Assembly (NCBI GenBank): GCA_902577765.1
Contig: CACHAK010000005.1
Coordinates: forward strand, 3,283-67,282
Length of the DNA: 64,000 nucleotides
Direction: 5' to 3'
Origin: an uncultured Pelagibacteraceae bacterium
Lineage (GTDB): Bacteria > Pseudomonadota > Alphaproteobacteria > Pelagibacterales > AG-422-B15
Under the pieces are notes generated by a model. That model worked only from the letters and a program-made list of their open reading frames with translations. It made no database searches and was not told the DNA's origin. Below are positions 3,251 to 26,206 of this stretch, one piece after another. Within the stretch, counting starts at the first letter, position 1. The number at the start of each line of letters is the position of its first letter. The translations under genes and the position numbers were made by a program.

Positions 3251-3288
3251 AAAAAAACGGCTGACTTAATAATCAGCCGTTTTTTTTT
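3251..3288. terminator. Intrinsic terminator (possibly bidirectional) after the binding-protein gene
   Basis: AAAAAAACGGCTGA-cttaataa-TCAGCCGTTTTTTTTT. Confidence 0.85.
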
Positions 3289-20632: not shown

Positions 20633-22272
20633 GCGTCGGCGGCTTTAGCCATTTCTCTCAGTTCGTATTTTAATATTTTGCCTGTTGAAGTTTTTGGCAG
20701 TTCAGTAAAAACGACTTTTTTAGGACACTTAAAGCCAGCAAGAGTTTCTTTGCAAAACGAAATAATATCGTCTTCACTCACGCTGTCATTTTGATCTTTT
20801 AATTCAATAAAAGCACATGGTGTTTCACCCCATTTTGCATCTGGTTTTGCTACCACTGCGGCAAATAATACAGATGGATGTTTATAAAGTGTATTTTCTA
20901 TTTCAACTGATGAGACATTTTCACCACCAGAGATGATTATATCTTTGCTTCTATCTTTTATTTGAATGTAACCATTAGGATGCATTACAGCCAGATCACC
21001 TGAGTGAAACCAGCCTCCTGCCATAGCTTTATCTGTTTCTTCCTTATTTTTTAAATATCCCTTCATTACACAGTTGCCGCGTATCATGATCTCACCTATT
21101 TCTTCACCGTCATTCTTAACGTGCTCCATAGTCTCAGGGTTCATAATGGCTAGACCATCCATCATCGGAAACTTTACGCCCTGCCTTGATCTAAGCTTTG
21201 ACTGTTCTTCAACTGATAGCTCATTCCATTCATCCTGCCATGCGCATAATGAAATATGTCCGTATGTCTCAGTCAGTCCATAAACATGAGTAACGTCGAA
21301 ACCCATTTTTTGAACCGCTTCTAATGTGGCTGCGGGTGGAGGAGCTCCAGCTGTTACTACATATACTTGTTGAGAGTATTCTCTTTTTTCCTCAGCTGTT
21401 GCTTGTGCTAGAAAATTTAAAACAATTGGTGCGCCACCAAAATGAGTTACTTTATGATCTGCAATAGCATCAAACATATTTTTAGCTGAAACATATCTAA
21501 GGCATACACTTGTGCCTGCTAGGGCTGTAAGCGTGTAGGGATTGCCCCAACCATTACAATGAAACATTGGAACTACCCACATATAAGTAGGATGCATTGG
21601 CATACTAAAAGCAGTAACAGATCCAAGTGCCATCAAGTAGGAGCCTCTATGATGATAGACAACCCCTTTTGGTAATCCAGTGGTGCCAGATGTATAATTG
21701 AGTGCTAGTGATTGCCATTCATCATCTGGTAAACTCCATTCGAGATCACTGTCACCTGTTAAAAGAAAATCCTCATAATTAATTTCTCCTAGATTCTCTC
21801 CAGCTCCCTCAGGATGATTCGCTAGCTCATCATCAATATCTATTACTAGAATTTTATTTTTTATCTTATCGAGTACTTGTTTTATCGTCGGTGAAAGCTC
21901 ATTATCAGTAATCAACGCTTTTGCTTCACCGTGCTCAAGAATATAGCTAATTGTATCTACATCTAATCTAATGTTTATCGTATTTAATACAGCGCCTATC
22001 ATCGGAACACCAAAATGTGTCTCATATATTTCAGGAGTATTAAAACAAAGAACCGCAACAGTATCTCCCTTTCCTATACCTCTTTTAGAAAGTGCGCTCG
22101 CAAGTTGTTTGCTTCTTTTATATGTTTCAGACCATGTAAATTGTTTTTTGCCATGTATAATCGAAGTTTTGTTTGGATAAACTTCCGCTGCTCGTATGAG
22201 AAAACTTAAAGGAGACAACGGTGTAAAATTTGCATCGTTTTTGTCTAAATTTGTATCATACATGTGAGCCAT
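20629..22272 (-). CDS. dmdB: Acyl-CoA synthetase, DmdB-like (3-methylmercaptopropionyl-CoA ligase type)
   Basis: YTSGTTGLPKG, YGLTE, GWFHSGD, PKTSTGKI. The N-terminus MYDTNLDKNDANFTPLSPLSFL resembles SAR11/Roseobacter DmdB as I recall it; substrate is inferred. Confidence 0.6.
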   Translation of the reverse strand: MAHMYDTNLDKNDANFTPLSPLSFLIRAAEVYPNKTSIIHGKKQFTWSETYKRSKQLASALSKRGIGKGDTVAVLCFNTPEIYETHFGVPMIGAVLNTINIRLDVDTISYILEHGEAKALITDNELSPTIKQVLDKIKNKILVIDIDDELANHPEGAGENLGEINYEDFLLTGDSDLEWSLPDDEWQSLALNYTSGTTGLPKGVVYHHRGSYLMALGSVTAFSMPMHPTYMWVVPMFHCNGWGNPYTLTALAGTSVCLRYVSAKNMFDAIADHKVTHFGGAPIVLNFLAQATAEEKREYSQQVYVVTAGAPPPAATLEAVQKMGFDVTHVYGLTETYGHISLCAWQDEWNELSVEEQSKLRSRQGVKFPMMDGLAIMNPETMEHVKNDGEEIGEIMIRGNCVMKGYLKNKEETDKAMAGGWFHSGDLAVMHPNGYIQIKDRSKDIIISGGENVSSVEIENTLYKHPSVLFAAVVAKPDAKWGETPCAFIELKDQNDSVSEDDIISFCKETLAGFKCPKKVVFTELPKTSTGKILKYELREMAKAADA

Positions 22273-23939
22273 TAAAACAATCCCTCTATGTCGCCATTTT
22301 TATTTAAGTGTATAGCATTTGCAGCTGGAACTCTAGGCAGACCTGGCATAGTCATAATCTTATCGCATACAACTACAAGAAATTCTGCACCCGCTGCTAG
22401 TCTAACTTCTCTGATAGGAACTACATGGTCTTTTGGAGCGCCTCTTAGATTTGGATCAGTTGAGAAGCTGTATTGAGTTTTAGCTACACATATTGGGTAA
22501 TGGCCATATTTTTCCTCCAAGTCGTCAAACTGCATTCTTATTTTTTTGTCAGCAATAATATCGCTCGCTCCATATATTTCTTGTGCAATTTTTTTCATCT
22601 TATCCCACAATTTCATTTCGTCCGGATACAGGTGCTTTATCTTTGGAGCATTTTGCTCAGTAATTTCTACTATGTGCTTTGCTAGGTCCTCTGTGCCTGC
22701 ACCACCATTGCTCCAATGTGTGCAATTAAATGACTTTACATTTAATGAGTCACAGCAATTGCTGATTGCTGATAATTCTTTTTCACTGTCAGATATGAAA
22801 TGATTAATAGCAACTGTAACAGGCGCCCCATACATTTGCATATTTGCAATGTGCTGCTTTAAATTTGATAAACCTTTTTTTACAGCTTCAACATTTTCAT
22901 TTTTTAATTCTTTTTTATCCATACCGCCATGCATTTTTAAAGCTCGAACTGTTGCAACTATTACTATTGCTGAAGGATTTAATTTTCCTTTACGGCATTT
23001 TATGTCTAAAAATTTTTCTGCTCCAAGATCTGCACCAAAGCCTGCTTCTGTTACAACATAATCACTTAATTTAAGAGCAGTTTGAGTAGCAACTAAAGAA
23101 TTACATCCATGGGCAATATTTGCAAAAGGACCCCCATGAATGATAGCAGGATTTTTCTCCAGTGTTTGAACAAGATTAGGTAAGAAAGCATCTTTTAGCA
23201 AAGTAGTCATCGCGCCATCTGCATTTAAGTCTCGCGCCGTAATTTCTTTCTTCTCCCTTGTATAACCAACAATGATATTCCCAAGTCTATTTTGTAAATC
23301 GTCTAAACTTGTAGATAAACAAAAAATTGCCATCACTTCAGATGCAACAGTAATATCGAATTTATCCTCACGTGGGTATCCGTTGGCTATACCGCCTAAA
23401 TTAACATTAATATTTCTTAAAGCACGATCATTTAAATCTACAACACGTCCCCAAACCACTCTTCTTGTATCAATTCCTAAATCGTTTCCCCAATAAATAT
23501 GGTTATCAATCATCGATGCAAGGAGGTTATGTGCTGATGTGATCGCATGGAAATCACCCGTGAAATGTAAATTAATTTTATCCATTGGTACTACTTGGGC
23601 GTAACCGCCTCCTGCAGCACCCCCTTTGACACCAAAGCAAGGTCCTAAACTAGGTTCTCTCAAGCATACCAATGACTGTTTTCCAATTTTATTTAAGCCA
23701 TCACTAAGACCGACTGATGTAGTAGTCTTTCCTTCGCCCGCTGGGGTAGGTGAAATGGCTGTCACTAAAATGAGTTTTCCGTTCTTGTTATTACCTTCTA
23801 TATGTTGAGTATCAATTTTAGCAATATGGTGTCCAAATTTTTGGAGATTTTGATCTTTTAAGTCTAATTTTGAAGCAATTTCTTCAATAGGAGCCATGCT
23901 ATTTTCTCTAGCAATTTCAATATCTGAGAGTACAGCCAT
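22272..23939 (-). CDS. fhs: Formate--tetrahydrofolate ligase
   Basis: [43 protein letters not shown]. Likely start 23939 (track 23969). Confidence 0.95.
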
Positions 23940-24056
23940 AAATAATACTAATATTAAAAACCTAGACAACTTAAGAACTTTACAGATAGGAGTCTACAAA
24001 AATGTATTGCTATAGAACACATTTTTACTTAAATTTTGTTTTAGGAGACTCAAATA

Positions 24057-24106
24057 GCGCTGCAAAATTAAGCCAAGCAGTGCAATTGAAAATTCGCGTG
24101 GCTTAA
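24057..24106 (+). ncRNA. Candidate cis-regulatory H-type pseudoknot upstream of the metF-like gene
   Basis: P1 GCGCUGC (24057-63) pairs with GCAGUGC (24077-83); P2 UUAAGCCA (24068-75) pairs with UGGCUUAA (24099-106). Confidence 0.4.
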
Positions 24107-24129
24107 GCGGTACACTCATTTACAGCATT

Positions 24130-24870
24130 ATGGGAAATGTAAATTTTTCATTGGAAGTTACTACAAGAACAAATCTGTCTGATTTGCCTAAACTCAATGA
24201 CATTTATATTACATTTTTGCCTGGCACAAGTTATCTTGACGTTATTGAACAAACCAAAGCGTTAGCTAGTGCAGGTTATAATCCCATTCCTCACTTTCCA
24301 GCTCGTTCAATTACTGATTCAGATATGTTAAAATCATATATAGAGCAAGTTAAAGAGGCTGGAGTTAAACAAGTTTTAATAATTGGTGGCGATCGCGATA
24401 TACTAGGAAAATATCATTGCTCGCTTCAACTTATTGAAACCGGATTATTTGATGGAATGAAAATAGGCATTGCTGGTCACCCTGAAGGATCTCCAAATAT
24501 GAGCGATACAGCTATTGAAGAAGCAATGAAATCAAAGGCCCCATTTGCCGATTATATAGTAACACAGTGGACACAAGATACAGACGCATTATCGTCTTTT
24601 ATTTCTGGAGCACCACTTCCTGTTCATGTAGGCGTTGCGGGTCCGGCTTCTATGAAGACGCTAGTTAAATTCGCTGGATTTGTTGGATTAAAGAATACGC
24701 TTAATTTCGCAAAAAAAAATGCATCTAAGATTTTTGATTTATTGACTGTTCAGACACCTGATGATGTAATTCAAGAATTAAAAGAGAACGTTGAACATTT
24801 TCACATTTATGCATTTGGTGGAATAAAAAAAGCAAACGAATGGTTAGAAAAGGAGAACTACTATGTCTAA
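24130..24870 (+). CDS. metF: Methylenetetrahydrofolate reductase-like protein (short marine type)
   Basis: FSLEVT, PHFPARSI, LIIGGD, IAGHPEG, IVTQW, VHVGVAGP. Confidence 0.8.
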   Translation: MGNVNFSLEVTTRTNLSDLPKLNDIYITFLPGTSYLDVIEQTKALASAGYNPIPHFPARSITDSDMLKSYIEQVKEAGVKQVLIIGGDRDILGKYHCSLQLIETGLFDGMKIGIAGHPEGSPNMSDTAIEEAMKSKAPFADYIVTQWTQDTDALSSFISGAPLPVHVGVAGPASMKTLVKFAGFVGLKNTLNFAKKNASKIFDLLTVQTPDDVIQELKENVEHFHIYAFGGIKKANEWLEKENYYV

Positions 24871-26206
24871 AAAAATAGAACATAACACTACTGTTGATCA
24901 AAGCGACAGACATGTTCCTTACAATTTACGCCAAAGTGGACCAACAAAAGTTGAAATGTTGATTTCAACTCGAGTAAGAAAGTCACCATATTGGCATAAG
25001 TCGATGGAGGCAGGATGCTGGAGAGCAACAGTTTATAACCGTATTTATCATCCCAGAGGTTATGTAAAGCCTGAAGATGGTGGAGCAATGGTTGAATATG
25101 AAGCAATTAAAAATCATGTGACTATGTGGAATGTCGCAGTTGAGAGACAAATACGTGTAATTGGTCCAGATGCAGAAAAATTTACAGACTATGTAATTAC
25201 AAGGGATGCCACAAAGATATCACCATTACGAGCTAGGTACGTAATATTATGTAACTATAAAGGCGGAGTCTTAAATGATCCTATTCTCTTAAGAATCTCG
25301 AAAGATGAGTTTTGGTTTAGTTTGTCAGACTCTGATATTGGACTTTATTTACAAGGTGTAAACGCTGATAAAAGATTTGATGTGGAAATTGATGAAATTG
25401 ATGCGTGCCCTGTTCAGATTCAAGGACCAAAAGCCATTGCCTTGATGAAAGACCTAGTGGGTGATCAAGTTGATCTTGATAATATTCCTTTCTATGGTCT
25501 AGCAGAAGTTACAGTTGGTGGAAGAAGTTGTGTGATTTCTCAAACTGGTTTCTCTGGCGAGTCCGGTTATGAAATTTATTTACGAAATGCGACGCTCTAT
25601 GCCGACGATATGTGGGACGCTGTTTTGGAAGCAGGAAAGAAACATAATCTAATGGTTATAGCGCCTGCTCACCACAGAAGAATACAAGCAGGCATATTAT
25701 CTTGGGGTCAGGACTTAGATCATGAACACAATCCTTTCCAATGTAATCTTGGCTATCAAGTTTCTTTATCTGGAAAAGGTGAGTGGGAGAAAAAAGGTGA
25801 TTATATCGGTAAGCAAGCGCTTGAAAAGATGAAGACTGACTTGAAAGATGGTCATAAGCCTTACAAGTTACAATTGGTGGGATTTGAAATTGGAGGCAAA
25901 CCAATTGATGAGTATGCGCCTGATTTTTGGCTTGTGTCTCCTGGTGAAGGTGGAGACCCATGTGGCTTTATTACTTCACCTTGGTATCATCCTGAAAAAG
26001 GGAAAAATATAGCTATGGGTTATATACCTTTTGATGGAACTCTTAATGCAAATGGCTTTCCAAAATGGGAACTAGGTAAAAAATTTAAAGTTCATTTACC
26101 TGATATTTATGCTGATGAGCCAGGAGTACCAGTAGACGCTGTAACAGTTGATGTACCGTTTACTGAGTCTTTCAACGCGAATACAAGAGAAGTTGTAAAG
26201 GGCTAG
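24863..26206 (+). CDS. GcvT-family THF-dependent aminomethyltransferase/demethylase
   Basis: RVRKSPYW, WNVAVERQI, NDPILLR, SQTGFSGESGYEI, RRIQAG; coupled to metF. Confidence 0.9.
   Translation: MSKKIEHNTTVDQSDRHVPYNLRQSGPTKVEMLISTRVRKSPYWHKSMEAGCWRATVYNRIYHPRGYVKPEDGGAMVEYEAIKNHVTMWNVAVERQIRVIGPDAEKFTDYVITRDATKISPLRARYVILCNYKGGVLNDPILLRISKDEFWFSLSDSDIGLYLQGVNADKRFDVEIDEIDACPVQIQGPKAIALMKDLVGDQVDLDNIPFYGLAEVTVGGRSCVISQTGFSGESGYEIYLRNATLYADDMWDAVLEAGKKHNLMVIAPAHHRRIQAGILSWGQDLDHEHNPFQCNLGYQVSLSGKGEWEKKGDYIGKQALEKMKTDLKDGHKPYKLQLVGFEIGGKPIDEYAPDFWLVSPGEGGDPCGFITSPWYHPEKGKNIAMGYIPFDGTLNANGFPKWELGKKFKVHLPDIYADEPGVPVDAVTVDVPFTESFNANTREVVKG

Follow-up and report, generated by a model that had tools for sequence, protein, structure and literature searches.

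A conserved leader RNA with a candidate H-type pseudoknot before an MTHFR-like and demethylase gene pair in one SAR11 family

Is the short stretch that precedes an MTHFR-like gene in an uncultured Pelagibacteraceae bacterium, and that can be drawn as an H-type pseudoknot, a regulatory RNA, and if so, to what would it respond? SAR11 bacteria have very few protein regulators and rely on riboswitches, and the scale on which they burn osmolyte methyl groups is relevant to ocean carbon and sulfur cycling. An RNA gating a methyl-THF oxidation/demethylase operon across a SAR11 family would reveal a signal that controls methyl flux. The locus lies on contig CACHAK010000005.1 (GCA_902577765.1), of which 64,000 nt were analysed (contig positions 3,283–67,282, forward strand; hereafter the window). 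A preliminary description of this DNA had proposed a riboswitch candidate consisting of two helices (P1 and P2), a loop L1, a one-nucleotide junction and a 15-nt L3, and direct reading of the sequence bears out every feature of that geometry, including a P1 of 7 bp with a single G-U pair (G24059–U24081; Table 1). Its statement that 23 nt without a clear Shine–Dalgarno (SD) sequence lie before the gene also agrees with the sequence: positions 24107–24129 separate P2 from the ATG at 24130, and GGAG, GAGG and AGGA are all absent from them.

Table 1. Features of the leader and of the adjoining genes, in window positions.
Feature	Coordinates	Strand	Remarks
fhs, formate-tetrahydrofolate ligase gene	22272..23939	-	Pfam FTHFS 860 bits; divergent, in the same intergenic region as the MTHFR-like operon
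Predicted sigma-70-type promoter	24007..24035	+	-35 TTGCTA (24007-24012), 17-nt spacer, -10 TAAATT (24030-24035)
AGGAGAC, SD-like	24043..24049	+	27/28 variants (one AGGAGAT); about 80 nt upstream of the ATG
P1 5' strand, GCGCUGC	24057..24063	+	Pairs with 24077-24083
L1, AAAA	24064..24067	+	Invariant across 28 variants
P2 5' strand, UUAAGCCA	24068..24075	+	Exact complement of 24099-24106; invariant in 28/28 variants
Junction A, P2 5' strand to P1 3' strand	24076	+	One nucleotide, invariant
P1 3' strand, GCAGUGC	24077..24083	+	Pairs with 24057-24063
L3, 15 nt	24084..24098	+	5' part (24084-24094) of variable sequence, its length differing by 1-2 nt; 3' CGCG (24095-24098) invariant
P2 3' strand, UGGCUUAA	24099..24106	+	Eight Watson-Crick pairs with 24068-24075; invariant
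GCG directly 3' of P2	24107..24109	+	Invariant
A/U-rich spacer to the start codon, without SD	24110..24129	+	Sequence variable; GCG-to-ATG length 16-22 nt
MTHFR-like gene, 246 aa	24130..24870	+	First gene of the controlled operon; Pfam MTHFR 29 bits
GcvT-fold, DmdA-like THF-dependent demethylase gene, 447 aa	24863..26206	+	Pfam GCV_T

Gene pair, promoter and transcript

The product of the first gene behind the leader matches PDB 7xg9 (5,10-methylenetetrahydrofolate reductase; E = 2e-34). The second gene, whose start overlaps the end of the first by 8 nt, encodes a protein with PDB 3tfh (GcvT-like aminomethyltransferase; E = 1e-45) as its top PDB match and with a score of 236 bits against the NCBIfam DMSP demethylase model, under the cut-off of 410. 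Judged from these protein matches, the pair is a demethylation and methyl-THF oxidation module and not the metF of the methionine pathway. What had been called the leader of a metF–demethylase operon is therefore the leader of an MTHFR-like/GcvT-like operon, and the canonical metF in that name has to be given up on the Pfam, PDB and NCBIfam matches; this weakens the analogy with SAM-sensing leaders and favours a folate or a methylated substrate as the putative ligand. The divergent layout of fhs and the MTHFR-like gene is also found in two other genera, g5 and g6, and at metagenome loci. In other SAR11-type genomes, the MTHFR-like/GcvT-like pair comes after an OpuAC-type binding protein and an ABC permease, stands divergent from a Rieske ring-hydroxylating oxygenase, or comes after an aldehyde dehydrogenase and a BCCT transporter (L032 471–2449; L036 1250–2443, minus strand; the locus of P0036), contexts that hint at a betaine-type demethylase substrate. 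The spacer between fhs and the MTHFR-like gene also contains the conserved block CTAGACAACTTAAGAACTTT (23962–23981), kept in the window's genus (g1) and in part elsewhere, and the block GTCTA-N-AAAAATGTATTG (about 23992–24009), which extends into the -35 box of the MTHFR-like promoter; these blocks may represent an fhs promoter, an UP element or an operator.

Transcription is predicted to start at about 24042–24043, behind -35 and -10 boxes that hold their position across three genera, 7–9 nt before AGGAGAC. The promoter match in the window is 8/12, below the scan threshold, and at the g6 locus L088 the scan calls TTGTCA-17-TAAATT (9/12), ending 9 nt before AGGAGAC; back-to-back promoters with a common -35 region were seen in the g6 scan. 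With the promoter only 7–9 nt upstream, AGGAGAC is probably the 5' end of the mRNA. Direct reading finds no start codon at SD distance after this heptamer, and no conserved pairing partner for it was found in L3, the spacer or the early CDS, where the only pairing is a 3-bp GAC/GUC in a few variants. A complementarity of UGCAAAAUUAA to CDS positions +10 to +20 (9/11, A/U-rich) was considered too weak to count.

At the 3' end of the leader, the AUG is without an SD in every lineage and the spacer is A/U-rich. No intrinsic terminator was found downstream of the motif in three lineages, and the leader shows neither a sequestered SD nor any other visible expression platform; the missing terminator and the fixed length of the spacer make control at translation initiation more likely than attenuation. 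In four studies, metatranscriptome contigs cover 23500–25000 including the leader, some of them bridging into fhs and one beginning at 23962; as assembled contigs, they carry no transcript start, end or strand. The conserved start of the MTHFR-like gene is an ATGGG 16–22 nt past the motif, which gives 246 aa. Public gene calls of 261 or 288 aa (P0010, P0012, P0013) begin within or upstream of the RNA motif, and at L169 the motif occupies 1462–1533 and the called gene 1501–2286; such long calls arise because no stop codon interrupts the frame within the motif, and the leader corrects them.

Conservation and distribution of the leader

H-type arrangements comparable to that of the leader are rare. 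With both helices required to have at least 7 bp, at most one G-U pair and at least three G-C pairs, and with L1 ≤ 10, L2 ≤ 3 and L3 ≤ 25, they arose twice when the intergenic region was dinucleotide-shuffled 5,000 times, and in 3 of 6,689 plus-strand genome tiles of 190 nt, a count of three that may or may not include the leader itself. Since a few can be expected in any genome, it is conservation that carries the case. For the leader, the nested MFE is ordinary (z = -0.24), which is uninformative because nested folding is unable to represent both helices together. The P1 hairpin has a predicted energy of -7.4 to -11.7 kcal/mol (19 variants, those with a mid-stem mismatch or bulge being left out) and the P2 duplex one of -9.0 kcal/mol; of the nested MFE folds, 8 contain P1 and 18 contain P2, a split that is expected if both helices form together. 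The GCG behind P2 could alternatively pair with the invariant UGC of P1 (24061–24063), and this is the nested fold in the MFE prediction.

To describe conservation, 28 distinct variants were aligned, drawn from genomes, JGI metagenomes and two ENA contigs that were reached via the protein and not via the RNA pattern. In P1, both sides have changed at 6 of the 9 alignment pairs, giving about 12 different stems, all of which pair; 94.5% of the P1 alignment cells are paired, compared with 21–46% when the partners are slid, and none of 500 shuffles reached the observed covariation score. At one mid-stem position a mismatch, a G-U pair or a bulged U is tolerated. Among the P1 variants, G-U and U-G pairs are frequent and are consistent only with RNA of the plus strand. 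On this comparative evidence, P1 forms, and the leader RNA element exists, is strand-specific and tied to the MTHFR-like gene, and is under strong selection. The preliminary description had allowed that pairing might not be kept in orthologous leaders, and it is kept wherever the leader exists; the covariation that it had proposed to look for is present in P1 and not in P2, which does not vary at all. A pattern search that left both P2 8-mers free, covering 185k species genomes, JGI metagenomes, all 60 genomes of the family and viral contigs, yielded no P2 variant among its true matches: SAR11 matches carry only UUAAGCCA/UGGCUUAA, and the matches in viral contigs, which pair at 0–5 of 8 positions, are chance matches. 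The pseudoknot therefore rests on the complementarity of two invariant strands, from which we infer that P2 pairs.

Invariance extends well beyond P2. Across the 28 variants, 40 of 76 alignment columns are invariant, and the conserved blocks are AGGAGAC, UGC-AAAA-UUAAGCCA-A-GCA and CGCG-UGGCUUAA-GCG; by comparison, identity at third codon positions in the neighbouring CDS is only 49–58% across the same lineages (near-saturated). With P1 and P2 stacked in a folded H-type pseudoknot, the helix junction would be surrounded by the invariant parts, namely L1, P2, the junction A, the P1 pairs nearest to it and the 3' CGCG of L3, and the distal part of P1 and the 5' part of L3 would lie away from it. 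Invariance around the junction would be the usual signature of a binding pocket, be it for a metabolite or a protein.

The motif follows the gene within one family. An MTHFR-like gene occurs in 30 of the 36 other g1 genomes, and all g1 leaders upstream of it carry the motif; the gene is also present in 18 of 18 genomes of a second genus (g3), at 50–54% identity. A covariance model built from the g1 leaders with P1 only (R1) gave strong matches, exactly one per genome, in 37 of 46 genomes of g1, 5 of 5 of g5 and 4 of 6 of g6. Of the 60 species genomes in this SAR11 family, 47, spread over three genera, have the motif, each as a single copy, and those motif-less genomes that were checked are also without the MTHFR-like gene. 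Records that bear it belong to the Pelagibacteraceae or Pelagibacterales, including the AG-422-B15 group, and in 26 representative variants the distance from GCG to ATG is always 16–22 nt. A search of the sister family with R1 returned nothing credible, and weak covariance-model matches in other genera (18–22 bits) were dismissed as terminator-like noise. The motif is absent from the leaders of distant orthologues, namely those of the g3 genomes and of the ENA contigs L174 (60% identity) and L173 (77%), in which the promoter stands a few bases from the ATG and leaders are short. On L173 (545–700), a protein 77% identical to that of the window is nonetheless combined with the short leader and the N-terminus MNFSLEI of distant Pelagibacter-type orthologues, and this contig may represent a recombinant lineage or a chimeric assembly.

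Within its own genome the motif has no extra copies, and its conserved 11–13-mers are unique, so there is no obvious trans partner. The context is always the same operon in one family, which means that the motif does not recur independently before related genes; validated riboswitch classes usually occur in several gene contexts. We consider it very probable that the element is a real, strongly selected and uncatalogued cis-acting leader RNA.

Candidate functions

The best single reading, to which we assign a probability of about 0.45, is that the H-type pseudoknot leader RNA is a metabolite-binding riboswitch, its binding being putative. The leader has generic features of an aptamer, being a conserved, structured 5' leader with a covarying helix (P1) and invariant junction and loop nucleotides. 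In the model that we propose, transcription would start just before AGGAGAC, P1 and P2 would stack as a coaxial pseudoknot, and a small-molecule pocket would be made up of the three junction-proximal P1 pairs, the AAAA of L1, the junction A, the 3' CGCG of L3, and P2. Folding and unfolding of the knot, with its 3' edge held 16–22 nt from the SD-less AUG, would alter 30S access to the A/U-rich initiation region, possibly through exchange with the nested fold, in which UGC would pair with GCG in place of GCA over only 3 bp. We infer the ligand pocket, the translational control and the ligand itself; leading guesses for the last are THF, 5-methyl-THF, other folates or a betaine-type methyl donor. 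More specifically, the knot might be the aptamer of a riboswitch class not described before, responsive to a reduced folate (THF or 5-methyl-THF) or else to a quaternary-amine methyl donor of betaine type, and turning on methyl-group oxidation in this abundant clade of SAR11; we regard that claim as improbable. Several points also count against the riboswitch reading: the strict sequence invariance suits protein recognition equally, P2 does not covary, the start of transcription is a prediction, neither a terminator nor a sequestered SD offers an expression platform, all occurrences share one gene context and fall within one family, a narrow range, and the model leaves the 5' AGGAGAC without an explanation.

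The same invariance invites a reading that we judge unlikely but deserving of weight, in which the knot is a translational operator and a pathway enzyme or a dedicated RNA-binding regulator, bound to it, occludes the SD-less initiation region. In P2, L1, CGCG/GCG and AGGAGAC it is the sequence, not just the pairing, that is invariant, as is typical of protein recognition, and the layout of a candidate 5' pseudoknot with an unstructured, A/U-rich spacer of constant length behind it, in one gene context and with a narrow distribution, would suit such an operator; yet no candidate gene for an RNA-binding protein adjoins the element in the window, and clustering of invariant nucleotides around the junction of a pseudoknot is just as typical of pockets for small molecules. 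Alternatively, the leader could be constitutive, with the SD-like AGGAG and the knot capturing the 30S subunit (as a standby site or translation enhancer) or protecting the 5' end of the mRNA from decay. SD-like 5' stabilisers and S1-binding pseudoknots are known elements, and this reading would give a role to the invariant AAGGAG-like sequence at the predicted 5' end, distant from any start codon, as well as fit an AUG without an SD in all lineages. It is a serious rival but still rather doubtful, because it leaves unexplained why the 16 P2 nucleotides, L1 and CGCG/GCG are frozen and P1 drifts freely, and because other SAR11 make do with a very short leader, devoid of this element, before their orthologue of the gene.

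Explanations at the level of DNA or of a peptide fare worse against the conservation pattern. A perfect, invariant 8-bp inverted repeat (TTAAGCCA...TGGCTTAA) within a divergent promoter region, with no covariation in P2, might be taken for a transcription-factor site serving the fhs and MTHFR-like promoters, the RNA fold being incidental. That is very unlikely given that the stem between the half-sites covaries, with G-U pairs that are workable only in plus-strand RNA, that the half-sites lie downstream of the predicted start with centres 31 bp apart, unusual for a dimeric operator, and that L1, CGCG, GCG and AGGAGAC are also invariant yet not palindromic. An orphan SD might also drive a short peptide encoded within 24043–24106. 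Besides the SD-like sequence itself, such a leader peptide could appeal to the frame of the downstream gene, which is open through the motif in some genomes (270 aa open, against a gene of 246 aa), and to the public calls of 261 and 288 aa that start inside or upstream of the motif; but in the window no ATG, GTG or TTG occurs 5–12 nt past AGGAG, the length of the open frame varies among close relatives (248–293 aa), L3 has indels of 1–2 nt, and changes in P1 track pairing and not codons. The sole common mini-frame, (C/U)UG-CAA-AAU-UAA (24061–24071), would need a CUG start in the window's lineage; although common to all variants, it probably arises as a by-product of RNA sequence conservation. 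With frames that are not conserved, we reject the leader peptide, to which we give almost no credence.

Comparison with catalogued RNAs

A search of the whole window with Rfam 15 gave no matches at the gathering threshold. At E ≤ 10, searches of short stretches of the window and of two further variants, L083 (g5) and L088 (g6), returned only noise to unrelated families, far below gathering, and the models for SAM-II, SAM-V, SAM-SAH, SAH, THF-I, THF-II and ZTP had no match in any of the three. The preliminary description had noted that the SAM-II/V core is not matched, and the covariance models agree even at this permissive threshold; the Rfam scan that it had suggested (SAM-II, SAM-V, SAM-SAH, SAH, THF-II and ZTP) found no family. 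A 2009 survey of structured RNAs in SAR11 described SAM-V, rpsB, rpsL and other motifs, none of them upstream of metF or fhs, and used a genome type that is without the present leader (PMC2704228).

Known RNAs nevertheless resemble the leader in part. The phage T4 gene 32 operator and the S15 and S4 mRNA pseudoknots share with the predicted fold of the leader a pseudoknot near the 5' end, behind which an unstructured, A/U-rich segment extends to the start codon, and sequence-level conservation in the leader is compatible with the protein recognition that such operators entail; host, gene class and sequence are unrelated, and the likeness is one of architecture only. THF-I, THF-II, ZTP and SAH riboswitches resemble the leader in their association with folate one-carbon genes, some of these classes preceding metF, folD or fhs, and its own ligand could plausibly be of folate type. 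To our knowledge, none of them is a simple 50-nt H-type knot with the conserved sequences of the leader.

The closest parallels are SAM-II (RF00521) and SAM-V (RF01826) of marine Alphaproteobacteria, including SAR11, which are short H-type pseudoknots, as the leader is predicted to be, before a gene of one-carbon or methyl metabolism, have their conserved nucleotides gathered in P2, L1 and the junction, and probably share with it a translational mode of action. In SAM-II, a U-rich L1 forms a major-groove triplex with P2, and the 3' strand is of a conserved AAAGCU type. The L1 of the leader is in contrast an invariant AAAA and not U-rich, which would keep the SAM-holding U-A-U major-groove triplex from forming in the same way, and the leader is without the AAAGCU/GCUAAA core, the 3' strand of its P2 being UGGCUUAA. 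SAM-V is typically found no more than about 10 nt from the start codon (PMC2704228), whereas the 3' strand of P2 in the leader contains no SD and leaves 19–25 nt before the start codon, 23 nt in the case of the window. The leader also has an additional AGGAGAC at its 5' end, and the gene that it would regulate is an MTHFR-like gene for methyl-THF oxidation, not one for methionine or SAM synthesis. Set apart by its L1, the sequence of P2, its spacing from the start codon, the missing SD and the 5' heptamer, the leader is not a member of SAM-II/V. If it binds a metabolite directly, as in the riboswitch reading that we favour, it would constitute a new and very small (about 50–65 nt) aptamer class beside these pseudoknots, and a betaine-sensing RNA, if true, would be the first of its kind.
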